Shown here: positions 2,239-42,844 of the stretch, in pieces
How positions within the stretch are numbered: position 1 is the stretch's first letter
How the letters are laid out: each line of letters opens with the position of its first letter
Notes under the pieces: model-generated
What the model was told of the DNA's origin: nothing
Databases searched by the model: none
Seen by the model: only the letters and a program-made list of their open reading frames with translations
NCBI GenBank assembly: GCA_036630325.1
Contig: CP142733.1
Span: 744,001-808,000, forward strand
DNA from: Vairimorpha necatrix
Taxonomy: Eukaryota
Length of the DNA: 64,000 nucleotides
Direction of reading: 5' to 3'
Made by a program: the position numbers and the translations under genes

Positions 2239-5206
2239 GGGGGTAAAAAATATCAGCTTTTAAAAAAATATAAATTAAATTTTTAATTTTTTTGGGTATT
2301 TTAATTGTGCTTAAAAATATATGTTTGAAGAGTAAATATAAGAAATAGACTGAAATTTAAATTTTTGATCAAGAGAAATTTAATTTCCTTTTTTAACATA
2401 AATTGGAATGATAATTCTAAATATCAAGTAAAACTATATTAAATATTCGAATATTTATATAATCTTTAATTGACTTTTGACAATCAAATCACAAAAAAAG
2501 GTTAAAGAAACTCTTAGCTTTGCAAAAACAATTACAACAATTGTAATGTTTTTAAATTTGTAGAAAGAACCATGCTTATCCTTTAATTTAAGCACTTTAT
2601 AATTCGAAGGTCCTTATATCTTGGATTTTAGTAAAACTAGGTACACTTATATATAATTGACAAAACCAATTGTAATTTAACTCAAATATAATCGTAGTGC
2701 ATTAAGTTCATACATGGGTAAATATTGAAAACGTGTCGCCTCTTGCACGTTAAGCAATCTTTGTCTCCACAAAAGTTTTTTGGTTATACTTTATTTGTAT
2801 TTGAAATAATAGTTAGAAACAAATTTTAATAAGTTTCCGTTTATTTCCGGATTTAAAAATAGGATTTAAGCATTAAACGCATCAATCCTAACAAAATGAC
2901 AATTGCTAAAAAAAATTTTCAACAAAGACATTTCATTTTGTGAATAGTCTTGATTCATCTACGCATTTTGAAGAAGTTTTAAGCAGACAAGTATTTTTAA
3001 CAAGTTATTATAGCATAATACGAAAGCCTTTTGCAAATACATAACCAGGGTTCAATTTCGGAATTTTTTTTATTTGTGTTGACAAATTTTAAATGTTTGT
3101 AAATGCTACAATAATATTTAATTGAAAGGATAAAAACATAAGGAGTTACAGGTGAACATACGTTTAGCTTAGAATCCATCTTAAAACAAAAAAAAAAAAT
3201 TCTACCAAAGATTCTTCAATGTACTTAAAAGACTGGTTTGTGCGGTAATAGACTTGCTTGTAAACCACAGATGAAAAAATTTGAGCCAAGATGATATATA
3301 GACAAATATATCACAATTTTCTAAGACATATCTTGTAGGCTTTGTGTAACGCTGCCAAATATTTTCGGGGAAGTGGTAAGTATTTACATAATGCAAGCTG
3401 TTGATGTGATGGTTTATTAATAAGGAAAAGAGATAAGAAATAAAGTAACCTAAGATTTTAATGTGTATTAAATTCTTCTTTGTTATTTTTTGCACGAGAA
3501 AATTTCTCTAATGATACAATTTTTTAGACTTATTATCAACCGGATTAGTTTTAGTTATCAATGCCTACAATTAGATATCTGCATTGAAGGAACAAAACAA
3601 GATTTATGATAATAATTTTACGATTTCAGCTGTAGATTTTTTTTTTTCTCAACCTATTACTTGATAAAAAACAATCTTATGTAATGAAATTTGGGTTTTC
3701 TGTAAAACAATATTTTTTAGAGGTATTAAATAAACAAATTCTAAAAATTCTGCATTTTTTAGAGAATTTATACTGAATAATACGGAAATTTCGAACTAGA
3801 AATAAAAAGCATGAATGATGATTTTATGTCTGATTAGATTTTGTTCTATGTGCCACATTGAAAAAATGTAATATAATAACGTCAGTATCAAAAGGTAAAT
3901 ACAATTTAACCTTAATTTAAATACTTAGTATAATTAAATTGATAAATTTTGCAAAACAACAACAATGATTGTATAAATACACTTGATTTATTATTTTTTT
4001 TTCTAATATATTTGCTAATAATAGTACGAAATCATATTTTTTTTTTCTACGTTAACTTCAGTATTTTATTTTATGGTGTATTTGGCCAAATGTGATTAAA
4101 ATGAAGAAAATAGTATCATGTTACTTTTTATATATTTTTAAGATCATATATTACGCCTGAAAATTTTAGCATTTCGTCACAAAACAATGCCCCAGTTGAC
4201 AATGTGTTTTTAAAATGGAATATCAAAAAGGCTAATTATTTCATTTATCAAAAAAGCCGTAATTTGAGTTCAAAAAAAAACAAAAATTTCTTAATGAGCT
4301 TATGGTTAAATCAATATTAAAGTAATATGTAAACTAAAATTTTGGTTAGATTTTTAAGAATTTTTAATGTAATACATCACACAAAGATCTTAACCAAAAG
4401 ACAGCTAAGTATATCTAAATTTCGTTTTTATGACATATATCATAATACTGAGGAAAAGGGACGATCTAACGCTAAGCAAAGAGTATTATTTTTTATACAT
4501 TTTCAGCATATAAAATATTAATTATAAAATTATCTTCTGTATACGAACACATACTTCTATTTTTTTAATTTTATTTTTTGTAGATTTTGTATACACATTA
4601 AATTATCTACGTATGGTCATTAGATTTAAAATTGTTATTTTGAGTATAACTCGATAATTATTTGATCCTATTTACCTGAAATATATTAACAACGATGTAC
4701 AACAAAGTAAAAATGTGTCATATAGATTAAAAATACGTAGTTCTAAACATAATTTCTTCTTTGTTATAAAATCTAATAAAATCAATAAATCTCATTTCAA
4801 TTAAAATATATTTAAAAGAGGAAAATATTATATTTTTTTATTTGTTATAATGTTTAAATAAACAAACATTCAAATGCAACTTATTTATGATACGTTATTT
4901 AATGATGAGATTAGTTAATCAAATAAATCAGTTATTTTGTGATTTTTTAGTAAATATTACAAAAAATAATTTCAACATCCTCTTAGATTATAAGTGATAA
5001 AAAATGATTGATAGTCGATGGCAAAAAATTATTTTAGGTTTATAATCATTTTAGGAATTTTACAATAAAACATATACTTAAATTAAAATATACAATTATA
5101 AACTTCTATTGAGCAACAAAATTCTAGTTTACTTTCATAATTAAGTCATATTGAATTTTATTGAATCTTTTTGATTATATATAAAAACAATCATTTACAT
5201 ATCCCT

Positions 5207-7285: not shown

Positions 7286-7509
7286 TGTGGACTGATGGTT
7301 TCCCATCAGTCCGAGAAGAATGTTTTAGACTAATATTTTTATTATTCTTCATACCCTTCTGGGCATGATTTTCTTTTATAATTTTAGGCGGGAAAATATC
7401 ACCAATTTCCCTCCAAAAATTATACATGTAAAGAGGGAGAATACTTACAGCATGGTATTCTCAGATCTCCAGGGTAATCTTAGTATCACCGGAGATCTGT
7501 CCCCTGACA
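7286..7509 (-). repeat. 3' LTR of Gypsy copy 1
   Basis: Direct repeat of 11071-11294, appears identical. Confidence 0.95.
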
Positions 7510-10500
7510 CTCCCCCTTTCTTTATCGGCTCCCAGGTTTCTAGTTCAAAGTCCATCTTCTTTAGGTCTTTCCAATTCACCGAGAACACTTCATTATTAGG
7601 GCTTATTATTTCATATGCCCCTTTCTTACCCACCTTAGTTATCGTGTATGGGCCCTCGAACTTACTATCCAATTTATTTTTAATCTTGATGAGTGGTTTT
7701 CTTCTTAGCACCACGTCTCCTATCTGAAGTGTCTGTTCTTTAACATCCTTTATTTCACCTTCTCTGGCCTCTCTCTCGGCTTGTAACATAATATCCCGAG
7801 TATGCTTTAATCTTTCAAATATTAAAAAATTATCTTCCAAATATAAGGTTTCTTCTTCGGGATGTTCCCATGTCATAGGTTTTCGTCCATATAATAGCTC
7901 AAAGGGAGAGAGTCCTGTTATTTTTCTGGGAGAAATTCTGTACGCGTATAGAGCCAGTTCGACGTATTCGTCCCAGTCTTTCCACCTTCCATTTATGATC
8001 TTTGCCAATTTGGCCACTAGTGATTGATTGGTTCTTTCTACCGTGCCATTACATTGTGGGTGGTAGGCTGATGTAAAAGATTTTCTTATTTTAAATATTC
8101 TACATAGTTCTTTGACCGTACTGTTTAAAAATTCAAGTCCCCTATCTGAAAGAATTTCATTGGGTGGGCCATGTCTACATATAATCTCCTCGAATATAAA
8201 TTTAGCCACTGTTTTAGAAGTCTTATTTCTTACGGCTTTCGCTTCGCACCATCTTGTCAAGTAATCTGTGGCGACTATTAGATATATTTTACCATTCTCG
8301 GACTTAGGTAGAGGTCCTACCATATCAATTCCTACCAGTGAGAATGGATCTTTTAGGCGAATCCTGTGGTGTTCTCTTGTTATTCTTTTTGAATTGAATT
8401 TTAAACATACCTGACACTTTCCAATCACTTGTTTTATTTCCTCATACATGCCTTTCCATTTGGCTTGGTCAAGAGTTAGAGTGTATGTTGGGAGAGTGCT
8501 TCCATGTCCACATTCTTCGTGGCATTTCAGTATAAGTTCTTTACGACTCTCGGGCGATAGTTCTCGTTCATTTTTATATTTTACTGTGTGAACAAATCTT
8601 GTCAATCCGTCAGCTACAACGTTATCTTTTCCTTTTATGTATTCGATGTCATAGGAGTAATTTTCCAATGTGAGAATCCATCTCATTAGTCTTCCTGTAC
8701 TTTCTTTATAACTTAGCAGCCATTTGAGTGCTTGATGATCAGTTTTAATGGTAAAAGTATTTGTAAGATAAATACGGAATTGAGATATGCTCCATATTAT
8801 CGCCAGGCATTCTTTTTCGGTTACTGTGTAATTGATTTCAGCTGGATTTAGTTTTCTTGAAATGAAATATACAGGCATTTCTGTCTCATCGTATACTTGC
8901 ATTAGCGTTGCTCCTATATAAAGGTTTGATGCATCAGTGTACAAGATAAATTTCTTAGTGAAGTCGGGTAGCTTTAAAACGGTAGAGCTCGTAATGATCT
9001 CTTTTATTTTCTTAACACTTTGTATGGCTTCTTCCGAGAATTCAAATTTTCCTTTCTTAAGGCAATCGTAAATAGGAGCCATTATATCTGTGTAGCTCCT
9101 TATAAATTTTCTAAAGTAATTTATAAATCCAATAAAGGCTCTGGTTTCTTTAAGTGTTGTGGGAATTCTCAAATTTAGACATTTAGTCTGTTGTTCTAAC
9201 GGTATACTAATACCAGTTTTATTTATCGTGTATCCCAAGAACTTCACTGTATTCTTTCCGATTTTACATTTTCCGCAGTTGACCCTCAGTTTCAGTTTGT
9301 TTAGTATTTTAAAAACCGCTTCTACGTGTATTAGGTGCTCTTCAATTGACTTCGAATATATCATTATATCGTCCAGGTAAACTTGTACAAATCTATGTAA
9401 GTAAGGAGATAATATCGAGTTCATTATTTTCTGGAATGTAAAAGGTGCATTTACCAGCCCAAATGGCATTCTAACCCATTGGAAAGTTCCTGATCTACTT
9501 CTGAAAGCTGTTAGATGCCTATCTTTTTTTCGAATTCGTATTTGATGGTATCCCGATTCCAAGTCCAAAACTGTAAATATGGACGCTCCTTGAAGTTCTT
9601 CTATGGTTTCTTCTACGAGTGGGATTGGGTAAATCATCTTCTTTGTAATTTTATTGAGTCTCCTATAGTCTATACAAAATCGTGTATCTCCATTCGGTTT
9701 TTTTACAAGCACTACCGGAGAAGTATAGTCTGACTCACTACCCTCAATGAATCCTTTACTTAGGAATTCTTTTACTTTATTTTCGATTATTTCATTTTGT
9801 TCCGGCGATCTTCTAAATTGAATATTCTTTACCTCTGAAAAGTCATTTGTTATTTCAATCGCATGCTCAATGTCTAAGCACGATTGTTGATTATTATCAG
9901 AAAATACATCGGGATATTTTGAAATAACTTTAATGAATTTTCCCTTTTCATTCTCTGTCATATCTTCTTCTCCAACATCTGCTATTTGAATTTCGGATGC
10001 TTTCGCCGTTGTAGTGCAGATAGACTTAGTTATTTGGGTACTCTTAATTTTATCCAGTATTTTATGTAAGTTTAAGTTCAAGATATCTACTAGGCCAATT
10101 ATTAGGTCTTCTGGTAGATTATTGACTACGTGTGCCTTCAAGACTTTTGTTTTTTTGGTCTTAGGATTTTTTACTAGAAATTCTACTATCCCTTCTGACT
10201 TCACTATACCTCCTATTCCTGCTATGGTCATCGCCTCTTTTTTTGGTTTTAACCCTAATGCTTGGGCTTTATTCCTATTTATGCAGTTAATTTCGGCTCC
10301 GGTGTCAATTAGCGCAGCAATTTTTTCTTTATCTGAAAAAAGATTTATCCTGGCTCGGATATCTGTTGAATTTTTTTTTGTTTCCACTTTACCTATTTTC
10401 AGGAGTAATGATGAATTCGAATTTATCTGAACTGATTTCTTGTTTATAGTTCTATATTCTTTTTTTTCCTGTAAAGGTGTTTCCTGTTGTGGCTTCCTAA

Positions 10501-11212
10501 ATAAGTTTTTTCTTTTCTTTATGTAATTATTTATAAAAGTTTCTTTTTCTTCTAGTAGTTCTAATAACTCTATCCAGTCTTGAGTATCGTTGACTGGCTC
10601 CTTTAAAGCATCCGGAGAGTTTCTTAGTATGGCAATCTTTGATCTTTCAAAGTACTCTGTGTTTCTCTTAGCATACCTCTTTAGGTCATAAGCGTAACTT
10701 ATAATATCGCTTTCTTTTGGACCTTGAACATATAGGTGCATAAACATATCAGTGTTGTCCTCCACTAGTTTCTCCTTTATATATTTTTTTTGGAATTGGG
10801 ATTTGAACGTCTCGAAGTCTGTTATCTCTTCGCCCTCGAAAGCCTTATACCATCTCAACGCTTTGCCCTTCAGTTTGGTTTTGGCAATATCTAGCGTCTT
10901 GGCTTGTGAATAAACGTCTTCAATTTCTCTGAACTGAGATAGAAAGTCTTCGGCTTTACTTAGATCTTCGCCGGTAAATTCTGTCCATCTGTTTTGGAGA
11001 CATAGTTTTTTCATGTAAGAGCAGATGTCCTCGATCTCATTCATCTTATCCTCTTCACCGTTACCACCAATGTGGACTGATGGTTTCCCATCAGTCCGAG
11101 AAGAATGTTTTAGACTAATATTTTTATTATTCTTCATACCCTTCTGGGCATGATTTTCTTTTATAATTTTAGGCGGGAAAATATCACCAATTTCCCTCCA
11201 AAAATTATACAT
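7445..11212 (-). CDS. Gag-Pol polyprotein (PR-RT-RNaseH-IN order, Ty3/Gypsy)
   Basis: Protease ALIDTGAE, RT VRMPFGL/YLDD, RNase H YTDAS/EKECLA/TDHQAL, integrase H..H..C..C, SDRGLEF, NGTVER and GPY. The true start may be Met57 (MNEIEDIC), just after the PBS. Confidence 0.95.
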   Translation of the reverse strand: MYNFWREIGDIFPPKIIKENHAQKGMKNNKNISLKHSSRTDGKPSVHIGGNGEEDKMNEIEDICSYMKKLCLQNRWTEFTGEDLSKAEDFLSQFREIEDVYSQAKTLDIAKTKLKGKALRWYKAFEGEEITDFETFKSQFQKKYIKEKLVEDNTDMFMHLYVQGPKESDIISYAYDLKRYAKRNTEYFERSKIAILRNSPDALKEPVNDTQDWIELLELLEEKETFINNYIKKRKNLFRKPQQETPLQEKKEYRTINKKSVQINSNSSLLLKIGKVETKKNSTDIRARINLFSDKEKIAALIDTGAEINCINRNKAQALGLKPKKEAMTIAGIGGIVKSEGIVEFLVKNPKTKKTKVLKAHVVNNLPEDLIIGLVDILNLNLHKILDKIKSTQITKSICTTTAKASEIQIADVGEEDMTENEKGKFIKVISKYPDVFSDNNQQSCLDIEHAIEITNDFSEVKNIQFRRSPEQNEIIENKVKEFLSKGFIEGSESDYTSPVVLVKKPNGDTRFCIDYRRLNKITKKMIYPIPLVEETIEELQGASIFTVLDLESGYHQIRIRKKDRHLTAFRSRSGTFQWVRMPFGLVNAPFTFQKIMNSILSPYLHRFVQVYLDDIMIYSKSIEEHLIHVEAVFKILNKLKLRVNCGKCKIGKNTVKFLGYTINKTGISIPLEQQTKCLNLRIPTTLKETRAFIGFINYFRKFIRSYTDIMAPIYDCLKKGKFEFSEEAIQSVKKIKEIITSSTVLKLPDFTKKFILYTDASNLYIGATLMQVYDETEMPVYFISRKLNPAEINYTVTEKECLAIIWSISQFRIYLTNTFTIKTDHQALKWLLSYKESTGRLMRWILTLENYSYDIEYIKGKDNVVADGLTRFVHTVKYKNERELSPESRKELILKCHEECGHGSTLPTYTLTLDQAKWKGMYEEIKQVIGKCQVCLKFNSKRITREHHRIRLKDPFSLVGIDMVGPLPKSENGKIYLIVATDYLTRWCEAKAVRNKTSKTVAKFIFEEIICRHGPPNEILSDRGLEFLNSTVKELCRIFKIRKSFTSAYHPQCNGTVERTNQSLVAKLAKIINGRWKDWDEYVELALYAYRISPRKITGLSPFELLYGRKPMTWEHPEEETLYLEDNFLIFERLKHTRDIMLQAEREAREGEIKDVKEQTLQIGDVVLRRKPLIKIKNKLDSKFEGPYTITKVGKKGAYEIISPNNEVFSVNWKDLKKMDFELETWEPIKKGGVSGDRSPVILRLPWRSENTML

Positions 11213-11294
11213 GTAAAGAGGGAGAATACTTACAGCATGGTATTCTCAGATCTCCAGGGTAATCTTAGTATCACCGGAGATCTGTCCCCTGACA
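11071..11294 (-). repeat. 5' LTR of Gypsy copy 1
   Basis: Direct repeat of 7286-7509, followed on the minus strand by the PBS. Confidence 0.95.
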
Positions 11295-18688: not shown

Positions 18689-19447
18689 ATGTTTTTAAGA
18701 TCCATATTATTTTTCAACAAAATACAACATGTATTTGCCAACTCCGCAAATGACGTCTCTATCGTAGAAATATCAACCAACAGAAATCTTGATGATCGTA
18801 AACAATGTAAGCGAGTACTTTTCGAAGAAAACCCAATGTTGATACTTGAAACTTATAATTTACATGAAGCAGAATCTATAGCGAAGATTATATACGAAGT
18901 TTTCTTAGACAAATTAAAATTTCCAATACATGTTAAACTCGATTATACAACGAAAGATACAAGATCGGAATATAAAATATTAAAAAAAGATTTAAGGTTC
19001 TCTTCCTATTGGTATTATCTCAATAATAATTCGTTTACATTATTGTATAATGGTAAGGAAAAAATTATTTATGAAATATTGAGTTCATTTGCCCAAAAAA
19101 CCTCTAAACTTTATGATTTTATATTATGTTGTCATTTCAATGTGAAAAAAATTAATTATTTTGAGCTTAAAGAAGTGATCTATATTTTAATGACGGTAAA
19201 AATGAGAAATAGACCAAGTTACAAGGTCGAGCAAGTTTTTGATAATGAAGATTATAAAAATCTCTTAAATAATATAGGAGATATCTTTAAAAGTGATGTT
19301 ACTAATTTCGGAATAGAAGAGGATAAAGTAAAAAAAACACAAACGGATTTAAATGAAATCCCGCAAAGGAGAATGAATCTCCGTCCTTTTTTATTCAATC
19401 CTTCGTTACTATTTAACCCCCTGCATTTGCTCGTAGGTAGAATTTAA
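18689..19447 (+). CDS. Hypothetical, possibly secreted protein; weak resemblance to family B
   Basis: Long ORF in AT-rich DNA. Likely start CCTT-ATG at 18689 (MFLRSILFF...VFA). ESIAKIIYEVFL resembles ETVSKNLYKIFL / NSAAKLMYKIFL of family B. Confidence 0.65.
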   Translation: MFLRSILFFNKIQHVFANSANDVSIVEISTNRNLDDRKQCKRVLFEENPMLILETYNLHEAESIAKIIYEVFLDKLKFPIHVKLDYTTKDTRSEYKILKKDLRFSSYWYYLNNNSFTLLYNGKEKIIYEILSSFAQKTSKLYDFILCCHFNVKKINYFELKEVIYILMTVKMRNRPSYKVEQVFDNEDYKNLLNNIGDIFKSDVTNFGIEEDKVKKTQTDLNEIPQRRMNLRPFLFNPSLLFNPLHLLVGRI

Positions 19448-19621
19448 TTAAAATTCTTTTCAGTAAAACTGAAAATTATCAAGTTTTTTGTATTATTCTA
19501 ACATATTTGTATATTTGCACATAAGTTTGTAAAATTTTCTTTTGTCATGTTAGTTCAATATATATAAAATCAAAACGACTGATAGGTAAACTGCCTCAGA
19601 ATTATTTTTTTCTATATAAAA

Positions 19622-19670
19622 TGTTATATATCCTTATTATTTTTACCCCTCATTATGGAAAATAAACACA
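19622..19670 (+). repeat. 5' LTR (49 bp) containing TATATA, CCCC motif, ATG and AATAAA
   Basis: TGTTATATATCCTTATTATTTTTACCCCTCATTATGGAAAATAAACACA. Confidence 0.9.
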
Positions 19671-22600
19671 TGGGGGCGATACCAGAAAATGGGTCTACAA
19701 AGGAGGACCGTGGCCAAGAGGCTAGAATATTATTAAAAGAGGTTAAAAGGATTGTTTATGAGTTGTTTTTAGAGAAAATTGATGAGTGTGGATTTAAATT
19801 AGAAATTTTTAGGAGAGGTTCTATTTTATTGAGAAATTTTATTGTTGAGAGGATCTCGCAAGAGAGTAGTTGGAAGGAAATTGAGGAAAAATTAGAGTTG
19901 CTAGCTATTCAGGAGGAAAAGGAACAAGTGAGAAAAAAAGAATTTGAAGAGTTGTCCCTAGCGTTATGGGCTAAATTTGAGGAGAAGAATAAGTTGTCTC
20001 GTGAGGAAAATAAAAAGAATATGCGTTGCTACAATTGTGGGAAGTTAGGCCATAGTGTTAGATTTTGTAGGGGAATGAGGCGAGATTCTGAAGACAGAAG
20101 AAATAAAAGTAGTTTTAATTATGTTGGTAAATGTAAAGTGCAATTAGACTTAGAGGGTAAATGTGATGACGATTCCAATTCGGACAAATGTGATTATTAT
20201 AATGTTGATGGTGGGAAACGTAAGAAGAAAAATTTAGGGGATATACAAGATTATAGCAAAAGGGACAATAATAAGAGAGTTCTGTTGAGAAGGGATGTAA
20301 GAGGCATCGCGTATTTAGAGGAGATTATTTCACGGGTAGGAGGAAGAGAGGATGAAGATATTAGTTTTTGTAAGGTTGAAAAATGTATTATCAAGACTCA
20401 AGAAGGCAAGAAAGTTGTTAAAAAAGGGCAGGCTATAGCTCAGGCTTTGTTGAAGAAGACGGAAGATTATATTAATAGTTTGGAAAGAAGAAAGATAATT
20501 AGAAGGTCGACATCTGATTGGAGAAATCCCATTAGAGCGATTGAGAAACCGAATGGTGATATAAGATTAGTAAGTAATTTAATTGCTCTTAATGACATTG
20601 TAGAGAAGGATCCTTATGAGTTAACTAGGATAAGAGATGTTATTAGAAGTACACAGGGATCTGAATTTTTTACCGTGATAGATCTAAAGGAGGGGTTTTA
20701 TAGTATTGAGATTGAAGAGAAGGATAGGTTTAAGACGGCTTTTGAGTTTAATAAAAAGGTATACGAGTGGAATTCGATGGTCATGGGGTTTAAAAACTCA
20801 CCGCAGATATTACAAAGAATAATGAATGGGATTTTTGAAAAATTTATTGGTAAGGGAATCGAAATTTATATGGACGATATTGTGATTCATAGTAAGACAA
20901 GAGAGGGTCACGACAAATTGTTGAAAGAGGCTGTGGATATATTAGAGGAGAATAGTATGAAAATTAATTTGGCTAAGGTTCAATTATGTAAACGAGAGGT
21001 GATGTTGTTAGGAGTATCAGTTAATGGCAAGGAGATACTGCCATCTGAAATAAAGCAAAATGAAGCGTTAGAATTTCCCAAACCGGAGTGTGTATCAGAT
21101 GTTAGGAAGTTTCTTGGGCTGGCTGGATGGTTTAGAAATCATATTGATAATTATGCAAAACGTACATTGGCGTTGACGGATTCTCTTAAAGGACGAGGAA
21201 GTAATTGGAAATGGACAGAAGAAATGGAAAAAGAATATATTAGTTTAAGGGAAGTGATTAGGGATTTAAAAGGTTTAGCAATTGTTAATTATAATAAGGA
21301 ATTTTTGTTACGCACGGATGCGAGTAATGTTGGAATGGGTGCTGTTTTAATGCAGGAAGATGATCAAGGTAATTGGGTACCAGTACAGTGGGCATCAAAA
21401 AAGTTTACGCCTACGGAAACGAGATATGGAATCAGTGAGAAGGAGATGTATGCAGTCTTTTGGGGAATTAAAAAGTTTGAATATGAACTACGTGGAAGAA
21501 GATTTAGGGTAGAAACTGATCATAAGGCATTGATCGAGATTAGAAATAAACCAGCATTTAACAATAATAGAATTAACAGGTGGATTGAAAAGATTCAAGA
21601 GTTCGACTTTAGCATTGAATATAGAGAGCCTAGTACCATGGTTGTAGCAGATGCACTGAGTAGGGTACATGAAAATGAGAAAACGCTAATGAATAAGGAG
21701 AGAAGTATTAAACAGGCACAGGGTAAATGGGACAAGCATGTTAAAGTTGTTGATGGGAAGGAAATTTGGGTATTTGACTCTGGTAGAGAAGCGGAGATTC
21801 CAAAGAAAGAATTGCGTGAAGGTTTAATTGTCAATGCTCATGAAAATTTGGGACATAGAAGTTTAGGATCAGTGTACTATGCAATGAAGTTTGAATTTTA
21901 TTGGCCGGGTATGAAGAAGGATATCGAGGATGTTTTAAAGAAGTGTGAAGTTTGCCAAATATATAATAGGAAAAAGAGTGGTGGTTGTGATTTTGTTAGT
22001 TCAAGATTTTATTTGGAAAAGGTTGCTTTGGATTTGATTGAGTTTAGAGATTTAGGGAAATATGTGTTGGTCGTGATTGATTATTATACTAGGATCGTTT
22101 GGGGAAAAGTAATAGAGGACAAACGCGGAAGCTCGGTTGTAGGATTTTTAAAACAGTTGTGTGGATCAGGAATGAAACCGGTAGAAATAATTACTGACAA
22201 CGGTAAAGAATTTAGTAATGAATATATGAGGAATTGGTGTTCAGAGGGAAATGTATTACATAGGAAAGTAAGCGTAGAAAGTCATAGAAGTAATGGAAGA
22301 GTGGAAAGGGTAATAGGAACCATAAGAGAAGGAATATTGAAAGATGATGCTGTGGATTTTGAAGCCAAGGTTAATAGATGTATATGGCGTTATAATAACA
22401 GCTATCATGAAGGGTTGAGATGTACACCGTTTGAGGCCTCAAGAGACGAAACGGGCCATGTTATGATCGAGAATGGACCTGAAGGATTTTATAGTAGGAG
22501 GTTTGTGGCTCGCAAAAGAGAGAAATTCTATAAAGGTCAGAGAGTTAGGGTAGCGAAGAAAGAGAACTTATCGGGTTGTAGTAAGTATGAGAAAGGAAGG

Positions 22601-22729
22601 TTTTTAGGATATGGTGTTATCAAGGAAGTTTGCGGAGGTGACTCATACTTAGTTAGTTTGGAAAATGGTAGGATCGTAAAAAATCGGCATTATGATTTAA
22701 AAGGTCTGCTTGGGATTAATGAGTTCTAG
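19655..22729 (+). CDS. Polyprotein: short Gag with CCHC knuckle, RT, RNase H, integrase; no protease motif seen
   Basis: CYNCGKLGHSVRFC, IDLKEGFY/MGFKNSP/YMDD, TDAS/EKEMYAV/TDHKAL/VADALSR, HENLGH..CEVC, ALDL/TDNGKEF/NGRVER. Confidence 0.93.
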   Translation: MENKHMGAIPENGSTKEDRGQEARILLKEVKRIVYELFLEKIDECGFKLEIFRRGSILLRNFIVERISQESSWKEIEEKLELLAIQEEKEQVRKKEFEELSLALWAKFEEKNKLSREENKKNMRCYNCGKLGHSVRFCRGMRRDSEDRRNKSSFNYVGKCKVQLDLEGKCDDDSNSDKCDYYNVDGGKRKKKNLGDIQDYSKRDNNKRVLLRRDVRGIAYLEEIISRVGGREDEDISFCKVEKCIIKTQEGKKVVKKGQAIAQALLKKTEDYINSLERRKIIRRSTSDWRNPIRAIEKPNGDIRLVSNLIALNDIVEKDPYELTRIRDVIRSTQGSEFFTVIDLKEGFYSIEIEEKDRFKTAFEFNKKVYEWNSMVMGFKNSPQILQRIMNGIFEKFIGKGIEIYMDDIVIHSKTREGHDKLLKEAVDILEENSMKINLAKVQLCKREVMLLGVSVNGKEILPSEIKQNEALEFPKPECVSDVRKFLGLAGWFRNHIDNYAKRTLALTDSLKGRGSNWKWTEEMEKEYISLREVIRDLKGLAIVNYNKEFLLRTDASNVGMGAVLMQEDDQGNWVPVQWASKKFTPTETRYGISEKEMYAVFWGIKKFEYELRGRRFRVETDHKALIEIRNKPAFNNNRINRWIEKIQEFDFSIEYREPSTMVVADALSRVHENEKTLMNKERSIKQAQGKWDKHVKVVDGKEIWVFDSGREAEIPKKELREGLIVNAHENLGHRSLGSVYYAMKFEFYWPGMKKDIEDVLKKCEVCQIYNRKKSGGCDFVSSRFYLEKVALDLIEFRDLGKYVLVVIDYYTRIVWGKVIEDKRGSSVVGFLKQLCGSGMKPVEIITDNGKEFSNEYMRNWCSEGNVLHRKVSVESHRSNGRVERVIGTIREGILKDDAVDFEAKVNRCIWRYNNSYHEGLRCTPFEASRDETGHVMIENGPEGFYSRRFVARKREKFYKGQRVRVAKKENLSGCSKYEKGRFLGYGVIKEVCGGDSYLVSLENGRIVKNRHYDLKGLLGINEF

Positions 22730-22756
22730 TATGAGACTACCGTCTTGGAGGGGGGA

Positions 22757-22805
22757 TGTTATATATCCTTATTATTTTTACCCCTCATTATGGAAAATAA
22801 ACACA
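22757..22805 (+). repeat. 3' LTR (49 bp)
   Basis: Identical to 19622-19670, preceded by the PPT and followed by TSD TAAAA. Confidence 0.9.
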
Positions 22806-25636
22806 TAAAATAAAGTCTATTAAAAAAAAATATTAATGGTATAAATGTCGTATAAATATAAGGTGTAAAACAAATAAAATTCGTATAAAAAAGCTATTAT
22901 TGGGTTTAATTTCTTCAATTTACCTCCACTGCCGTGCACTCAATCTGGTCCCACCACCTTCTAACTACCTCTAATATGTTCTTGAATCCAGATCCTCCTT
23001 CGGCGAGTCCCACCCGGCGTTAAAAGGAGATGCTCTTCAGAGTATTTTTTATAATTCATATTATAATGTAAACTTCGGTGCTAGTTGATAGGCCGATGGC
23101 ATTAACATAATTGATGTGGTATGATTTCACAATTAACCCCAAGTAATGACGTATAGTATTATTTGAACTTTGTTTTTGTACATTAAGCCATATTCATTCG
23201 CTTGATATCAAACTTTAAGTAAGTTATTCTGGGTAATTATTCCTATTTCGATTAGTGTTATTTTTTATTTTTCTTGACTAGTACTAATTTACAGCCTTAT
23301 TAAATTGTAGCTTTATATCAGTGTTGATCATCGTGTCTGACCGAATTTCTGCGTATAATTAGCTATTTTCTTGCACATTGTGGTTTCGTATTGTCTTATA
23401 TGATCTTAGTCCATACTTCAAGAATAGCTAAAGTGAGATGAATATAACAGCTTCATTATGTCTTCTACTATAATAAAATGATAGCATACGATCACAACTT
23501 GTTTAAATGTGATCATCTTTCTAAAGTTAATAATTTTTATTATTGCTTTGATATTACAATGGAATCTAAAGTCTTGAATACAGAATTATCTACAGGAGTA
23601 ATAAAAATTTTGTTATAAACTAAAATTCGTCAAAGCAAGAAACCAAATTTTCGTTTTTACGAGGTAAAAAGATCTTTTTTGAAGAAAAAATGTGTCCTAG
23701 TCGTAATGAAATCAAAAAAAATATGTATATGGTGAAAGATGCAAAATACTGCTAAGTAATGAATACATTGGGCGCAAAATTATATTATATAGATCTCCAA
23801 TATAAATATGAAAAAATAAGATTGAAAGTTGGTTAAATACTGTGTCTATTCTGTTCAATGAATATTTGCAAAAAATTGTAATAATTGGGTCGACATGAAC
23901 ATGAAGACAGATGTAAAACGAATCAAAAAAAATACGAAGGTATCAAAGCTAAGCGAAATTGAAAGTTTTAGAAGAATAAAATAGAATTACGTCGGTTGAC
24001 AACCTTTCTCAAATACAATCAGCAAAACTATCTAAATACGAATTATTTGCTAGTGAAAATGGGTTATTTTAATAAGATAAAAATTTTAATTTCATAGTGC
24101 TTTCATGGCCACGTTCTACGTAGCACGCAAGATGCAGAAAAGGGCTGAAATGTTTTTTTTAAAAAGTTGTCTTATCAATTAACAACTCCTAAGAATGGCC
24201 GATTTACACCACGCTAGATCTTTGGAGATTAACAGAGAAAATCTTGAATCATTACGCGAAAGGAGTCCTTAATATGATTTCTTCTTCTAATAATGTTTCT
24301 AGCAGTTTAAACAAACAAATTATCGCCAAATTAATTTATTGTGTTTTCTAAAAAAATTTATTTCGCAATAAATTGCCTAAATCGACCCAGAAATTCACAA
24401 TTAAAACAAGAAATATAAAAAATATTAGATTTTCTATTAAACAAGTTAGAATGATTTATAAATCGAAATCATTGTTTTTTTAATAAGTGCACACAATTGG
24501 ATTAACGAAATACATTATAAATTCCGTTTGAAAAACAGAATTTATTTTTAGCAATTTACAATCAGTATATAGTTTTATGTGAGCCTTTTATTCTTTTAAA
24601 TTGTATTTAGACGAAAAAATACAAGAGGGAAATCCCGAAGAATATTTATCACGACTTTAGGTATAATGTGAAATGTTTTCTTTCTTTGATGGCGGAAACT
24701 AGTAAAGAGTTACTATTAAGACTTATTTAAATCATATAATGGTTAAAAAAATATTAAAATAGTCCCGGCCTTCGGACTACAAAAATCTGACAATATCTAA
24801 TTAATTAGAAAAAAAAACAATACTAGAACAAGGGTCATCATGATTTTTATGAATTTATTTAGAAAACAGAATCAAATTATAAAAATTTTCAACTTAGTGT
24901 TTTATATCAATCAAATAAGAGAAGTTCTATTTGTAATTTTTAACCATACATGTGACACCAAAAGAGAATGATGCCTTTTTATAAAAATGAAGGCAAAAAT
25001 AAATTTAAAAACAAATGTAGTAAATGAGAAATAAATACATTTTTTTCATTAGTTTTGAAGGTATCCTTATAGTGTTGTCTCTACACTCAAAATCACGGAG
25101 CATATGAATAATGTGAGAAAAATGTACTAAAATTAAAAAAAATAAACGCTGTTATAATATTAAAAATAAGTTTTGAAAATTTTATCCATCATAATCATGT
25201 GGAGATAAAAATCATACAACAAACTGTTTCTTTTTGAAAAAAAAAATTAAAAAATTATAAGATCTTGTAATACTACCGAGAAATGAAATACAATCGTGCC
25301 TATTCCAAGAATATGGTTTTAAAATCAAATCATTCAAAGTTTAGTATTTTTGTTAAAAATCCCGAAAAAAGTAAAATAAATATGCAATAGTTATTATGAT
25401 AGTCTAAATTTCAAAAAATAATAACTTAAATTGTGATCACAAATTAAATGACTACTTTAATGAACAAAAAAATCTATAGTTAATTAGACTCTAATTTTTA
25501 GTTAATGAAACATCTTTTCTTTTCTTATGTCTCTATTTCAGTCTTGATATGCTTCTCTTGTAAGTAGAGATGATTAAACTCCCCGTCTCTTGTTTTTTTT
25601 TTCATATTTATCAAGAACTTCTGATATTCTATATTT

Positions 25637-30644: not shown

Positions 30645-33225
30645 TTGAGAATATTATCGCAACTTTAATTATTACAATAAAGTTTTTAATTAAATTTATT
30701 TTTTTAATGATGATAAATTATAAAAGTTTTTTTGTATCAATGATGGATTGAACAACATTTTCTATCCATAATCGTTAGAGCTAGCTCTCTACAGTTGTTC
30801 GTTACTATGGAAAATATTTATGTTCTTACGTACAAATGTTTTAATGGTCTACTTTTGCTTTTGTCTACCAAGTCTCTACATATATCTGACCAACTATTTA
30901 CTTAATTAACACCCTGATCGTATCTTCTTTATTAGTTGAAACAGACTCTGCAGTCTTTTTCAAATAGATTTGGTGCATACTTTCTCAATTTCTAGTTTTC
31001 AGTTTCTTGTTGTACTTTTTTGCTATTTGGTCTCCGTTTCATCCCATTTAAATACATATGTCTACTTTTGAACATAATTTATGTATTTGGTTCAGGCCAT
31101 AATCTACAGATTAGCTTTTAGCTTTTCATTTTCGACTTAAATAAGTCCAATCTGATAGTGCCCAACTGCCAAATTGATGTTTTTCTTGGAATAATGTTTT
31201 TTATTTAGATCTTAATTGAAGAGGCATAAGTTTTAAGACATTAAATCATAAATGTTCCATTAGTAAATATATCTAATTATATAAAATTACACACATCTAT
31301 AACATATCTCGCTTTAATAGTTATTTTATATTTTTATAATCTATAAGCTTTTAAATAACAAATGATTAAGATTTGGAAAATTAAATTATTAGAATATTTG
31401 TCATTTAGACCTGTATTTATATTATCCTTTTCCATATAACTAATTTATCATAAATAATGAAATAAAAAAAAAGTTTTCTGATATATATATATGGAATGAT
31501 TATCTGATTAAAAAAAAGAAAGGTGCGCAAGTTTTAGATTTAATATGCAAGCTGAAAAAACTAAATAAAATATTTTCTATTGTATGTAAAATTATTTAGT
31601 GTATCATAGTAATCTAATGTATGCAAGTAGATAAATAATAAATTTTTTTTTACGTTCTCTAAATCTTTTTAATTTTAATGTTGAAATATAATAAAACTTC
31701 AAAAAAGAGGTGGAAAATATATTTTTATATTTGTAATGCCATGAAATGTATGTTAAATTTGTTTAGAATATTCCTGAAGCATAAGGTTTCGAATGTTACA
31801 GAAATACACGAAAAGTTTGAAGTTGAAACTGTATTAAATTTTATTGAATTCTAACTTGGATTTAAGAATTGTGTGTATAAATTATAAAGCACGAAATAAT
31901 TATAGAGTAAATTATGGATCATTTTCAAAATACGTCCATCTAAATAGAATATGTGAAGAGTTGAAGTTTCGCAACTCTTAAGAACAAGATATTTAACAAA
32001 TACATCGCAAGTTAACGCACATCCTAGCAAGTTGCTATTATAACCGTCTAAAAGTAAACTGTTAGTTGTTTAACACATAAATTGTTTTGTAATATCAATA
32101 TGTTGCAAAGCTCTTAATCATAGAATGGTTTCATACTAGGCTGTAGATGATAATGCCAAATATTGAGATTAACGAAACAAAGTTTAAAATAAAAAATTTA
32201 TATATGTAGAGAGTAGAATGTATTTGAAGTGTTTATTTTTAAGAAAATTTATCTATTCTATAGTATTATAAACCTCTTAGAATAAAATTTAAATAATCAT
32301 CAAATTATTGAAAATTTTATGATCTATAGAGTTAAAGTTATATTGATTTTTAAATATTTATACTATAAAAAACACAAATGCAATATTGAATATAATTATC
32401 TCGTCAATTATTAATGATGTATCATACTTAAACTATTACTTTTCAAATTATGAAATTTTTAGTATTCATACGTGACTTTCTTTAATGTATATAAATATTG
32501 CTAGTTTATAACTTTTTGCATTTCATATAATTATAATATAATGAGAGAATAGTATTTTGTAGACTTACCTATTAGTTTACTTATTTAAGACGGTTTTATA
32601 TATTATGATAGACTTTTTTCAACATACTAAATTTTATAATTTATATTATGTAAATTTTTTTTGTAATGTTATATATCAAAATACACATTCTTAAAATTAC
32701 ATCTAATTTTTGAAATAATTGACTATTAAAAATAATGATATTTTTTAGTCTGTTTCTTTTCATAAAGAATTTTCTCCTAGATTTTACATTACATTGTGTG
32801 TCAAACGTTTTAATTTGTTAACTTATGTCAAAACTCTCACTTCGAGGAAATTTATGTCACAATAAATCATTATTGATTTTCATGACTAATCTATTTTAGA
32901 CTAATGATAAAAAACATTTTGTTACTTTTTTATCTCGTAAGAATTATTTGTAATGGGGTTGAATTTATTATGATTAGTGATTATATATAAAATTTGTAAT
33001 TTTTATTTTGAAAGTTATTATTTTTGGTTTAAATCTTTAATCATATAATTTTTTTTTATTGTATCTAATTGATGATCAAATATATTAAAAAGTTTTAATT
33101 AAATTTATTTAATAAAATGACATAAGATTTTTTTTATAGTTTCTTTAAAGTTAAAAATAACACTAGTTTTAGAAGAAAAAATCTAAATTTTTTAGCTATT
33201 TAAAGAAAAAAAATTAAATAGCCCC

Positions 33226-34137
33226 ATGTTATTTTTCAATTTTCTTATTGTTGAAATATTTAGCACGCACAATATATTTGTAGTACCGGATAATGATAAT
33301 GCTAATGTTTATATAACATTAAAACAGAAAGATTTGCCTGGAAGTTATATAATTCGCGAACTAAATGAAGAAAATTGTGTAAACGAATCCGTAAAAACCA
33401 ATAACCAAAGATTAAATACAGAAGATAAAACCAAACTACATTATTTCAATCCAATAACATTAGAAGAAAGAAGAGTCCTAGAACATATTTTGAATTGTTA
33501 TAAAACGCTAAACTTTAAAGATAGAAAAAAAGTTGAAATGTTCCTAAAAGGAGATGTCTTAGCGGTAGCAAAAATTCAAACTTATATAAATTATTCTATT
33601 GGTGTGATGAAATCAAAAAATTTTGTTACTGTTGACAAATATTTGAACAGTAAAAAATTTAAATTAGACAAATTTCCTAAAATCTACTCATTAGAATTTT
33701 ATGTTTCTTATGATTCCAAAGAAAATCAAATGGCACATTTTATTCCTTGTTTTTATAAAAATGCACTGTTAAAAAATCAACAATCAGAATTGCAAAATAG
33801 GGTTCACGGAAGAAGTGAAGAATATCTAAATGAAAGATCATATGTTAAAAATTTAAAAAATACAACGATTGATACAATAATTTCAGAAATAGACAATAGT
33901 TTTAAATATCAAACGCCCGAGGAATACCATAAAAATAGACATGAAGTTAATTCTAATACACGAGAAACCCATGAGGAAGTTAGAACAGCACCCATAAACA
34001 GAAGTAGATTGAATGGCTTATTTTCATCAGTTCAAAATCTCTTAAATATAGGAAATTCTAGCAATCAAAATGATACTAACAGAAGAAATAGAAGAAATTC
34101 ATTAAATTCACCTTTAAATCGTGGTTCTAGGTTCTGA
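33226..34137 (+). CDS. Family-A putative secreted protein (closest paralog 44540..45499)
   Basis: CCCC-ATG, MLFFNFLIVEIFS, family motifs, C-terminal NRSRLNGLFSSVQNL and RRNRR. Confidence 0.85.
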   Translation: MLFFNFLIVEIFSTHNIFVVPDNDNANVYITLKQKDLPGSYIIRELNEENCVNESVKTNNQRLNTEDKTKLHYFNPITLEERRVLEHILNCYKTLNFKDRKKVEMFLKGDVLAVAKIQTYINYSIGVMKSKNFVTVDKYLNSKKFKLDKFPKIYSLEFYVSYDSKENQMAHFIPCFYKNALLKNQQSELQNRVHGRSEEYLNERSYVKNLKNTTIDTIISEIDNSFKYQTPEEYHKNRHEVNSNTRETHEEVRTAPINRSRLNGLFSSVQNLLNIGNSSNQNDTNRRNRRNSLNSPLNRGSRF

Positions 34138-35081
34138 TAACAAAAAAGCTTTATTTATAAATTGAATATTTATATTGAAATAATTATCAAACAAAAATTA
34201 TTAATAAGTAAATGTCTCTATAATCGGCATTTTAATCGAGATTTGAAAGTGAAAAATTGACTTAAGTAGACTTAATATAAACAGCCTTGGTTATTTCGAA
34301 TTAGTATGCAATTATTAAATAAAGCTATTTTTTAACAAATTTAGTGCATTAAAGGGCATATGTTTTTGTCTTTGCAAAAGCATTAAACAATTTATCATAT
34401 AAATTTTATATTTCTGAATATATAGCGACATGTTGTCATTTGTAATAATTTTGTATATTCCTGTGTTTTCCATATCAACTAAATAATAATAAAAGTTTTA
34501 AGCTATAGATATTTTTTTTTAAAGTTATATTAAAAGAAAACAAGTTAATATTTTGTTGCAAAAAAAGTGGATTTAAAATTCATAAATGAGCATTTTGAAA
34601 AAAAAAAACAAATTGTTAAAAGCATGTATTAATTTTGGTATCATTTATAAAAACACACTGTTATCTGAAGAAGATATCGCAAGCTGCTGATGTCGTAGCA
34701 TTTACTTTGAACCAATTAAGTTCTTAACTGGCGAGTGGATCAGACGTGTTAATTTTTTTTAATCCTGCTGAACGTAGGTTACAAACATTCCTGTGTGTTG
34801 TTCTAATCCTAAGAGATATTTTTCTCCTACAAGCAAGGCCTTTATGGTATTCTGACGGGGTCTAAATTTATTAGCTGTTGGAGTTTTTAATTGCTGGTGG
34901 CTTTTTTTTAATAACAATAAAAGTTTTTTAGTTTTTTTTAGCAAGGCCTTTATGATATTTTGGCGTTTATCACAAGTTATTAGCTGTTAGGGTTTTTATT
35001 TCTGTAAAAGGTTTTTTTAATATCAATTAAAGTTTTTAGTTTTTTACTAAGATTTTATTATTATCAAAATATAAAAAACAA

Positions 35082-36447: not shown

Positions 36448-39400
36448 TTATGGGCCAATTAGTTCACGTAGAACTACATTTTTGACATTGCCCCTGTTTC
36501 CCCCCAACTTGACTCTCAAGTTTTCACTCTTCTTCACTCTTGACAAAGCTACGTATAATTGACCATGAGAAAATACATCCTCAGGCAAATACACTCCCAC
36601 TTTGTCAAAAGACTGTCCCTGTGCTTTATGTATTGTCATCGCATATGACAATACCACAGGAAACTGTCTTCTTTTAAGTACAAACGGAAGAAGAGTGTCA
36701 CTTGGCATCATGTCTATCTTTGGTATAACAGCAAGGGTGCCCCTTCCCCTTCCTGTTATTATTTCACCTAAGATGTAATTATCTTTAAGACCTTTTATCT
36801 TCAATCTGGTCCCATTTAATAATCCATTCTTAGGATCAATATTGCGTAACAACATCACTATTGCCCCTATCTTCAATACTAACTTATGTGGAGGAAGTCC
36901 TGATGGCTGTTGCATGTTCAAGAACTCAAGAGGAAATCTCAGTTGTTCTTCGATATCCTCTGATTCTATAGCATCAGAACTCACATATACCCTCGAAGGT
37001 CCTTTGAGAAGGTTTAACACTTTGGCATTCAATTCATTTGCATGTTCATTTTTGCTCGTTAAGATAATCTTATCAAACAAAGAATCATCACCTGCTTCAA
37101 TTTTGATTGTTCCAAAAATGCTATCGACTATGTCCCCTTCTTCAAGATATTCTTTGGGTATCTCCACACATCCTTTACTATCTCTAGTACGCCCCTCACC
37201 TATATCTAACAACCACTTATTAAACTCCAATTGATTATAAGATCTCATGTTCGTTTCAAGCTTTAGTACACAGACATGTACCCAAAGTCTTGAACTAATT
37301 AATGAGTTCTCGATGATATCATTTGGAGTACCCTTCATTACAATGGTTGATGTCTGTCTAAAGTCACCACCCAACAATAAGGTCTTCCCTCCAAAGATAT
37401 CATTATTATTACAGAGTCTTTTAAGCACCTCATCTATTGCGTCCAATGCATGTTTTGACATCATCGAAACTTCATCTATCAGCAATAATGAGGCCTTTAT
37501 TATTCTCTCTGCTTCTGGAGTATTTTGCTTTAGTCTAGATACGCTGGTCTCTGTCAAAGGAACAGGAAGTTTCATACAACTATGCATTGTTCTTCCATCC
37601 TTTAATAAATCTGCAGCAATACCTGTGGTTGCCATCTGTATTGAAGATTTTTTACTCTTACTTAGATACTCGATCAGGACATTATATAAATATGTCTTTC
37701 CTGATCCAGCTGGTCCATCTAAAAAGAATAAATTGCCTCTTTTATCTATATTATCTGTAATTATATCAAAGGCATTTCTCTGGTTTTCATTCAAAGAGGA
37801 TATCATCTGATCTAGATCTTGTTCATTATCAAAGACGGCTCTTTCATTCTTGATATAGTTAATCGGCTCATCTAAACCCAGAGCATTTAAGCTCCATCCA
37901 TGAGCATTAACTATATCTTTTAATCTACTTAATATTTCGTCTCTACTATTCTGATCTAGATCTTCAGACATATCTCCAAGATACTTCTCAAAGAGTTCTT
38001 TGGTATTTTTAGGCTTATTGAAAGCACAAATATATCCAAACAATGCTCTTATTATTGATGGGGACTCGGTTGATACAGCCTCATCCAAAGCCCTTTCCCA
38101 TTCTTTATCATCTTGAAGAAGTCCTCTTTCTTCCACCGCCTCTGCGAAAGAACTGTAAACTACACCATTTACAGTTCTCAAATCCTCATATGACTTAACC
38201 CCCTTTACATTGATCAATAGAACTCTGAGGCTAAATCTTTCCTTCTCTATTGGAGATACAGAATAAAGTCTAGTAATTATCTTACTATACTTATTCTTTC
38301 TCCTAATCCATTCTCCCCTTTTATATGTATAGTGATAGGGTATCTCACTATACGAAAATCGATGTGCTCCTTCATCAACTTCATTCAATTTGAAGTAGGC
38401 TAAAAGAGGAGTCTGTCTAAGATCGGACAATCTAACGGCTTCCTCTTCTCTGCCTTCTTCGAAAGTGATCAATTGTTCTTGTGGAAGATGCACAGGAAGT
38501 CTATGGATCTTATGAGATCTTCCATGCATCTTGTATTCCATTAATCTCCAGGTAGCCTCTGGTGCTGAGACATATCTGGAATTCACAAAATGATCAATTT
38601 CATTGTTGTCAGTTATTCTCATTTCAGCACAATCAAATCCCTTGTAAATATACTTAAAAATATACTTTACTGACTTGATAGAAGTACAAACTTCTACATT
38701 GATATGACAATTGTATTTTTCAAGTAGATAAGCATTATAAGGGACCACGTTAGCATTAGTAACAATGTTGCCCCTTACATTGTACTCGGCCCCTCTAGAT
38801 CGTCTGTACTCAGGATATCCGTCTTTATCGATCCTTGTTTCAGTATTATGTTCCTTAGGATATTCCTTAGTGCAGAGACCATTTTCCATACATGGACTTG
38901 TCAAGTTACTTAGTCCACATGGTCCATGAATCATATGTTTTGTTACACAGGTGTGTAACACTTCATTTTCCATGGGCGATGGTATTTCTGCACTTACAAA
39001 CTTATCTATCATATTTTCATCCCGAATCTTGTCCTTTAACATTATCAATATATGTGCATGAGGAAGTCCACGTTTTTGAAACTCAATAGAATAGACATGA
39101 GCCACGACTTCCCCAAACACTCTTCCTGCCAAAATCTCTTCCATCATACTTTTCAACTTTAAGTTAAAGACCTTTGCTACCAAATCTGGTCTATCAACTG
39201 CTGTCTGTCCCTCAAATAGATTCTCATTAATCTCCTTCCATTTGGGATTGCAAGTCATAGTTATAAAAAGATCGGGCTTGCCGAAATTTCTTACAATTGA
39301 CATTGCATCATGGTATCTCTCTCTCATATTTCTTGGAGATCCTTGAAAACTTGATGGTAAGATCACGGGCTTGGCAGAACTTTCTGACCCATTATTTACA

Positions 39401-42789: not shown

Positions 42790-42844
42790 AATAGAATGTA
42801 AGTTAATTGCTTATTTTTTTAAAATCTCATCTATTCAACAGTAT

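Follow-up and report, generated by a model that had tools for sequence, protein, structure and literature searches.

The Ty3 retrotransposon of Saccharomyces cerevisiae (Metaviridae) is about 5.4 kb long, carries 340-bp long terminal repeats (LTRs) and splits its coding between two frames, GAG3 and POL3, which include a capsid and a protease. Here we describe an element with LTRs of only 49 bp at 19622–22805 of a 64,000-nucleotide stretch from the microsporidian Vairimorpha necatrix (assembly GCA_036630325.1, contig CP142733.1, positions 744,001–808,000 of the forward strand; hereafter the window, whose numbering is used for its features). Like Ty3, it has the order reverse transcriptase (RT), RNase H, integrase, TG..CA ends, a target-site duplication (TSD) of 5 bp, and a primer-binding site (PBS) and polypurine tract (PPT) that abut the LTRs. 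Unlike Ty3, it has a single frame of 1024 amino acids that starts in the LTR and in which no protease or capsid domain was found. The element belongs to the LTR-retrotransposon order and the Ty3/gypsy pol lineage, with an LTR length far outside the usual. We are fairly confident that it inserted recently, that it is apparently able to transpose, and that it belongs to a Ty3/gypsy lineage specific to microsporidia and reduced to about 3.1 kb, built on one polyprotein and LTRs of about 40–50 bp.

Microsporidia-specific Ty3/gypsy groups with a single polyprotein, rather than separate gag and pol, have been described (Parisot et al. 2014, PMC4202319; this paper and PMC3281118, PMC2685015 and PMC10815200 are cited here from excerpts). 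The window element shares its host phylum with these groups and falls in our tree with other probably microsporidian elements. It differs from the Anncaliia algerae retroA consensus (supplementary file S1 of PMC4202319), in which the terminal repeats measure roughly 190 bp by eye; the word “protease” is absent from that paper, and its excerpted text contains no LTR lengths. The window itself carries a second family that is alike in its TG..CA ends, 5-bp TSDs, open reading frame (ORF) starting in the 5′ LTR and CCC at -10, but unlike in being 4.0 kb long, with 224-bp LTRs and a 1255-amino-acid protein that scores for gag capsid and aspartyl protease and is 29% identical to that of our element. 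The two copies of this second family, at 7286–11294 (minus strand, TSD CTAAC) and 59597–63605 (plus strand, TSD GAGTA; TSDs paired with copies in the order of listing), are 99.6% identical, and the 1255-amino-acid ORF ends inside the 3′ LTR.

Among the published elements that our search turned up, the shortest LTRs are those of grasses, where the 5.2-kb coding copia element FRetro64 has LTRs of 76 and 90 bp and the 292-bp non-coding FRetro129 (SMART) has LTRs of 85 bp (PMC3281118). Both share 5-bp TSDs and TG..CA ends with the window element, but they are plant Ty1/copia elements, whereas ours is gypsy-type, 3.2 kb long and has LTRs about half as long. Elsewhere, an LTR of 194 bp has been termed “very short” (PMC3701649). 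In a full-text literature search, with Repbase and Xu et al. 2006 (Nosema bombycis Nbr) outside its range, we found no description of a coding element with LTRs below 76 bp. The full texts searched likewise held no account of the LTR lengths of microsporidian elements or of this element’s architecture, and no paper that joined microsporidia, retrotransposon, LTRs and primer binding site; an earlier description may exist in Repbase or in Xu et al. 2006.

The element is 3184 nt long (about 3.2 kb), with an LTR-to-LTR period of 3135 nt. Its parts are as follows, with a slash marking an LTR boundary here and below.

19617–19621, plus strand: 5′ copy of the TSD, TAAAA, read from the sequence and present as a single copy in the empty-site contig of public run X3
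19622–19670, plus strand: 5′ LTR, 49 bp, TGTT...CACA, from a repeat search; the flanks of other copies diverge at both its ends
19625–19631, plus strand: TATA-like box TATATAT, starting 30 nt 5′ of the ATG at 19655
19640–19649, plus strand: T-run and C-tract TTTTTACCCC, a microsporidian start-associated motif, with CCCC at -9 to -6
19655–22729, plus strand: polyprotein ORF, 1024 amino acids, with its start in the 5′ LTR and its end 27 nt short of the 3′ LTR
19661–19666, plus strand: AATAAA, putative polyadenylation signal, 4 nt from the LTR end; its 3′ LTR copy is at 22796–22801
19670–19672, plus strand: in-frame ATG across the LTR/PBS junction (CA/TGG), conserved in the alignment
19671–19683, plus strand: putative PBS TGGGGGCGATACC, abutting the 5′ LTR and lying inside the coding region
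22733–22745, plus strand: conserved block GAGACTACCGTCT, just 5′ of the purine tract and present in five of five family 3′ ends
22747–22756, plus strand: polypurine tract GGAGGGGGGA, abutting the 3′ LTR
22757–22805, plus strand: 3′ LTR, 49 bp, the same letters as the 5′ LTR, from repeat and pattern searches
22806–22810, plus strand: 3′ copy of the TSD, TAAAA, read from the sequence

Both LTRs begin TGTTATATATCC and end AATAAACACA, and there is no difference between them. The repeat finder reports 51 nt, which includes one chance-matching flanking base on each side. A search with the LTR as a pattern, allowing up to three mismatches, gave two matches in the window against none expected from 100 shuffles. 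The 1024-amino-acid ORF is the sole ORF of at least 80 amino acids within the element. An earlier note, made from the letters alone, had described identical 49-bp TG..CA repeats, a TAAAA TSD, a PBS abutting the 5′ LTR, a G-rich PPT and an uninterrupted 1024-amino-acid ORF, with TATATA, a CCCC motif, the ATG at 19655 and AATAAA at 19661–19666 inside the 49 bp; all of these are present in the sequence as it described them.

Parts of the stretch occur in 20 public runs from 15 studies, four of which (X1, X2, X3 and X16) were compared as contigs. Assembly of the element in both X1 and X16 gave contigs that measure exactly 3165 nt. This is the 3135-nt period plus 30, as a repeat longer than the assembler’s word would give. 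The depth of the X1 contig is 59.3, against 2.6–4.4 for flanking contigs, which hints at many copies, although copy number cannot be read from depth. At the LTR boundaries (19670/19671 and 22755/22756), contigs from X1, X2 and X3 depart into unlike sequence. Two pairs of 5′ and 3′ flanks in X2 agree in five boundary bases, counting one or two chance-matching bases: ...GTTATTTGA/ with /TTTGATTTG (TSD TTTGA), and ...AACTTTA/ with /CTTTATATT (TSD CTTTA). Among the loose ends listed, TTTAT, GTTTA and GTTAT stand at the first or last positions of other flanks.

A 176-nt contig of X3 joins 19615 to 22805 through seven shared letters and skips 3189 bases. The string ATAAAAT stands at both 19616–19622 and 22805–22811. 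Since 3189 is the 3184 nt of the element plus the five of one TSD copy, this contig is the empty target site, and an empty site in another run means that the insertion is polymorphic and recent. With an empty site elsewhere, identical LTRs and an intact ORF, the element has transposed recently, as the earlier note had proposed. The boundaries of true 49-bp LTRs are fixed by the TSD, the empty site and the copies with other flanks. That other copies should meet different flanks at the same LTR ends, each with its own 5-bp TSD, was borne out in the public runs (TTTGA and CTTTA), and the run contigs showed neither the longer LTRs in other copies nor the misassembly that the note had named as counter-evidence.

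These data also bear on whether the repeats could be an artefact, either of chance or of the misassembly of a host gene derived from a retroelement. All that speaks for this is how unusually short the repeats are. None of the 100 shuffles yielded such a repeat, and the TSD, PBS and PPT stand at the exact places expected of them. Independent runs rebuild the unit, show other flanks at both boundaries and hold the empty site, and the same architecture recurs in unrelated contigs from metagenomes and metagenome-assembled genomes (MAGs). We regard an artefact as hardly credible.

Two further forms were observed in the runs. In one X3 contig, position 20368 runs straight into 22408 and 2039 bases are left out; its contig depth is 1193, whereas the full-length internal pieces of X3 have depths of 37–78 and the empty-site contig 33, depth again not being copy number. 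A non-autonomous derivative of about 1.1 kb, amplified after an internal deletion, may account for this form. In X1, loose ends at 22772 and 22784 represent variant family LTRs ending ...AACCCCAATTATGATAAATAAAT and ...CATTATGATAAATAAATACA/TGGGGG, so that at least two LTR subtypes with the same PBS occur in one sample.

By protein and LTR comparisons, the element is one member of a deep and widespread family with a common compact architecture, a microsporidian clade of about 40 polyproteins that are each roughly 1000 amino acids long. A protein search with the window polyprotein gave 260 matches, the best 42 of which are 36–99% identical and mostly about 1000 amino acids long. No protease family is found in these best 42 by precomputed Pfam annotation; protease annotation appears in more distant matches, the first being P0044. 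Named relatives come from Nosema granulosis (80% identity), Vairimorpha necatrix (58%) and Enteropsectra breve (48%), and 15 Logan-derived members of 999–1031 amino acids lie on contigs of 3035–3159 nt with 25–100 non-coding bases each. Relatives are annotated as “endonuclease”, “reverse transcriptase” or “Tf2-9 polyprotein”, and one is filed under a “Clostridium sp.” MAG. No relative of the element was found in IMG/VR. Bacterial MAGs titled Clostridium sp. and Turicibacter sp. (loci L007–L009 and L020–L046) gave 49 and 16 matches to the family profile; their retroelement contigs are probably mis-binned microsporidian or other eukaryotic DNA.

The ends of several relatives can be read directly. 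L003, on a metagenome contig with 52% identity and a degraded ORF, has 39-bp TG..CA LTRs that differ by one mismatch, the TSD TTATA, the PBS TGGCACCCAGTC and the PPT GGCGGGGA. Within one metagenome, the 5′ end of L002 runs from flank through a 49-bp LTR into TGGCACCCGATG, and the 3′ end of L005 runs from GGGCGGGGA through a 49-bp LTR into flank. Within the MAG G001, the 5′ end of L008 runs from flank through a 47-bp LTR into TGGCAACACCGATC, and the 3′ end of L037 runs from GAGGGGGGA through a 46-bp LTR into flank. The 3′ LTR of L020, a single end only, was read as 38 bp. A TGG-initiated sequence abuts the LTR in the window element, L003, L002, L008 and L022, with PBS types in relatives beginning TGGCACCC and TGGCAACACC, and G-rich tracts ending GGGGA/ precede the LTR in L003, L005, L020 and L037. 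As a side observation, the L002 5′ LTR (1055–1103, minus strand) abuts the opposite-strand RNase H region of a different retroelement (L001, 1–23), an arrangement that may reflect one insertion nested in another or else a chimeric contig.

L022 and L032 are sister lineages from a MAG bin. The LTRs of L022, at 229–286 and 3535–3592, are 58 bp long, with an ATG at the LTR/PBS junction and an ORF that ends inside the 3′ LTR. Those of L032, at 262–336 and 3777–3851, are 75 bp long and hold ATATATA, TTTTTAACCC-ATG and AATAAATAAA, an order that matches the corresponding signals in the LTR of the window element. A quick maximum-likelihood tree of 38 rows and 980 columns, with support from the Shimodaira–Hasegawa-like approximate likelihood ratio test (SH-aLRT) only, placed the lineages as follows.

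The element’s family (22 rows): LTRs of 38–49 bp; one clade with 100% SH-aLRT support
L022: LTR of 58 bp; sister to the family with 100% support
L032: LTR of 75 bp; outside the clade
L028: LTR of about 177 bp; outside the clade
The window’s second family: LTR of 224 bp; outside the clade

This suggests an order of LTR reduction along the tree, the root of which, on distant animal-type elements, is imperfect, with two outgroup rows on the wrong side.

The LTR junctions also leave a trace in the proteins. Of the 22 alignment rows with an N-terminus, 20 show Met-Ala/Gly at one column, and the residue before it is His, Tyr, Asp or Asn. Such a string results when ...NAYA/TGG, the LTR end followed by the PBS, is translated, and the same CA/TGG-type ATG junction is also seen in L003, L002, L008 and L022. 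In 6 of 26 rows the C-terminus reads G-D-V..., which is the translation of GGGGA/TGTT, the PPT followed by the LTR start. Thus, the proteins themselves record the LTR junctions. Just 5′ of the purine tract, the block GAGACTACC(C)GTCT (window 22733–22745, L003 3643, L005 3197, L020 2701, L037 1532) is kept at the DNA level in all five 3′ ends read, with proteins only 41–60% identical, and reads as “ETPS” or “LPS” in those proteins that run through it. No consistent hairpin was found at this block and the PPT (z = +0.57, -1.96, -2.41 and -0.61 in four elements). Folding of the 5′ leader gave z = -0.17, and Rfam gave no match at E ≤ 1 across window positions 19300–23100.

In N. ceranae, a T-run with CCC lies no farther than 15 nt from start codons and is most enriched between -10 and -3, and TATA[AT]A[AT] has a peak that starts near -27, in a range of -25 to -32 (Cornman et al. 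2009, PMC2685015). Microsporidian 5′ untranslated regions (UTRs) are very short or absent, with CCC-like signals just 5′ of the start (MicroAnnot paper, PMC10815200). The window LTR follows the N. ceranae layout: TATATAT starts at -30 and TTTTTACCCC places CCCC at -9 to -6 of the ATG at 19655. Within the window, 12 of the 18 ORFs of at least 150 amino acids have CCC within -13 to -3, against a background of 0.0044 CCC per base, and these 12 include the 49-bp-LTR element, both second-family copies and a Helitron. AATAAA is present in eight of eight LTRs examined (seven lineages), against a window rate of 0.003 per base, or about 0.13 expected per LTR. It lies 3′ of CCC and ATG in the window LTR, the X1 variant LTR and L032.

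The 49-bp LTR thus appears to reproduce the host core promoter. The earlier note’s view that it is adapted to the compact signals of the host holds for the promoter motifs (TATA at -30, CCCC at -9 to -6), and for these at the motif level only. On a different explanation, the 49-bp repeats would be integrase ends and nothing more, the RNA would come by read-through from host promoters, and TATA, CCC and AATAAA would be by-products of AT-rich sequence. In a genome with about 75% A+T, TATA-like and AATAAA strings turn up often, and run-on transcription has been mentioned for some microsporidia (PMC2685015). Yet CCC is rare and still falls at the published spacing together with TATA, and CCC followed by ATG within 0–18 nt recurs in the LTRs of L003, L005, L020, L022 and L032. 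The presence of AATAAA in every LTR examined also exceeds its chance expectation, and an RNA made by read-through would have no defined R through which strand transfer could proceed. Read-through as the whole explanation is, in our view, very improbable.

The polyprotein contains the following domains.

20027–20068, plus strand: CCHC zinc knuckle, residues 125–138 (Pfam zf-CCHC, E = 0.0036, below the curated cut-off)
20540–21019, plus strand: reverse transcriptase, residues 296–455 (Pfam RVT_1, E = 5.9e-31)
21212–21604, plus strand: RNase H, residues 520–650 (Pfam RT_RNaseH_2 and RT_RNaseH)
21803–22264, plus strand: integrase, with H2C2 at residues 717–772 and the DDE core at 792–870 (Integrase_H2C2, E = 1.3e-13; rve, E = 7.8e-10)

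The order RT, RNase H, integrase is the gypsy order by Pfam, and the nearest solved structures, for the RT/RNase H region, are Ty3 RT and Ty3 Gag-Pol (4ol8 and 7q5b, E of about 1e-55). Residues C125, C128, H133 and C138 are invariant in the family alignment, and the CCHC knuckle may represent the nucleocapsid-like part of a reduced gag. No chromodomain (PF00385) was among the Pfam matches of the window protein.

Across 26 aligned members, no aspartyl-protease or gag-capsid family was found by Pfam at E ≤ 1, apart from a weak Peptidase_A17 in three of them (E of 0.047 or weaker). In the same scan the 1255-amino-acid protein of the second family scored Retrotrans_gag/Ty3_capsid and three protease families, L032 scored a protease, and L022 scored neither protease nor capsid. 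Profile homology to the 1255-amino-acid protein begins at residue 220 of the window protein, corresponding to its residue 428, past its protease at 294–374. The 81 residues that separate the CCHC knuckle from residue 220 are poorly conserved and rich in gaps. The N-terminal 220 amino acids gave 43 weak matches, none at E ≤ 1e-30, in 1.84 billion representatives, and many of the 43 are knuckle matches or fragments. The element thus seems to lack two customary gypsy features, a protease and a recognizable capsid, which were not detected rather than proven absent.

This raises the question of whether the element is mobile but non-autonomous, its lost protease and capsid supplied in trans by fuller Ty3/gypsy elements such as the 1255-amino-acid family with 224-bp LTRs. 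The protease and capsid families are missing from all 26 of 26 members, the second family in the window scores both, and the high-depth X3 form joining 20368 to 22408 hints that derivatives may be trans-mobilized. However, a deep clade of 41–60% identity keeps intact ORFs of about 1000 amino acids, with RT, RNase H, integrase and the knuckle, in many hosts, which argues for selection on the family’s own proteins. The candidate helper is only 29% identical and its LTR ends are unrelated. We consider supply in trans unlikely, although less so than the other alternatives above.

ARAGORN found no tRNA genes in the window, in loci L001–L009 or in nine loci around pattern matches. The complement of the window PBS has two exact matches in the MAG G001, neither of them in a tRNA. 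A 9-nt pattern from the L008 PBS has 32 matches in the same MAG against 24 for the control, which is the chance level, and the sole exact match to the complement of the L022 PBS is the element itself. Self-priming of the Tf1 kind was considered and rejected, as no complementary stretch between PBS and LTR was seen by eye.

We propose the following scheme for the compact, transposition-competent element. The first 30 or so nucleotides of the LTR would act as U3 and amount to no more than a core promoter of the host type, in which TATA stands at -30 and a T-run with CCC precedes the start codon. Because microsporidian mRNAs have almost no 5′ UTR, the RNA would start a few nucleotides 5′ of the ATG, leaving at most about 16–21 nt for R plus any U5. 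AATAAA would direct 3′ end formation at or just past the end of the 3′ LTR; as it lies 4 nt from the LTR end, cleavage is probably at or beyond that end, and U5 would be nil or a few nucleotides, in line with the earlier note. A primer, probably the 3′ end of a tRNA, with tRNA-Pro as the leading candidate, would anneal to the TGG... site after the LTR, within codons 6–10, and the short minus-strand strong-stop DNA would transfer through the short R. Some retroviruses have an R of only about 15 nt, which makes the proposed size workable. The G-rich tract would then prime the plus strand, and the DDE integrase would insert the TG..CA-ended DNA, making the 5-bp duplication. The transcript start and end, the length of R, the identity of the primer and the ability of the polyprotein to work without its own protease are the parts of this scheme that we infer.

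Several observations weigh against this reading. Both LTRs of one copy were seen in two members only, the window element and L003, and the remaining LTR lengths of the family were pieced together from two copies or one end. The contig pieces listed for the runs do not include the window’s own flank–LTR junctions. In the window, the loci and two MAGs, no tRNA was found that would pair with the window PBS, and reading the PBS as a tRNA 3′ end beyond about 13 nt puts a T at the normally conserved C61. The layout of the signals is not uniform: AATAAA lies 5′ of CCC in L003, L005/L002, L008 and L022, and at the place of CCC L008 has only ACC and L002 TCC. Finally, the promoter, poly(A) site and U3/R/U5 division are drawn from sequence motifs alone, and the absence of protease and capsid from sequence profiles only.

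The family might even be the smallest self-sufficient LTR retrotransposon design known, a suggestion we make tentatively and think possible but on balance doubtful. Such a design would comprise 3.1 kb, LTRs of 38–49 bp (a host-type promoter of about 30 nt and an R no longer than about 20 nt, U5 being absent), a PBS and PPT in or touching the ORF, and an uncleaved knuckle-RT-RNase H-integrase protein without protease or recognizable capsid.

Other features of the window include a 1434-amino-acid ORF at 36448–40752 (minus strand) for a Helitron-type Rep/PIF1 helicase, with a host-type TTTACCCCC motif before its ATG. The best relatives of this helicase, at no more than 55% identity, are proteins from unnamed contigs and from arthropod, amphibian and reptile genomes. 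Dispersed duplicates of about 2 kb at 32262–34336 and 43588–45686 are 75–78% identical, and a tandem pair of about 750 bp at 42046–42790 and 42844–43588 is 85% identical. Almost the same motifs (AATAGCCCC ATGTTA) stand upstream of the ORFs at 33226 and 44540.

A common setting in the use of LTR finders is a minimum LTR length of 100 (“minlenltr 100” recurs throughout our literature search listing). At that setting the whole family is missed, and its members are annotated as host genes or binned into bacterial MAGs; this may distort both the transposable-element loads and the gene counts given for microsporidian genomes. That the insertion is polymorphic shows that the family is active now or was so recently, and it may serve as a strain marker. 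With this family, the minimum content of an LTR becomes much smaller, as about 50 bp hold a putative promoter, a start codon, a putative poly(A) signal and both integrase ends, in a mobile element remodelled to its host’s extreme economy of gene expression. If the self-sufficient minimal design is true, long LTRs, proteolytic maturation and a capsid shell would be unnecessary for LTR retrotransposition in a cell with minimal transcription signals.

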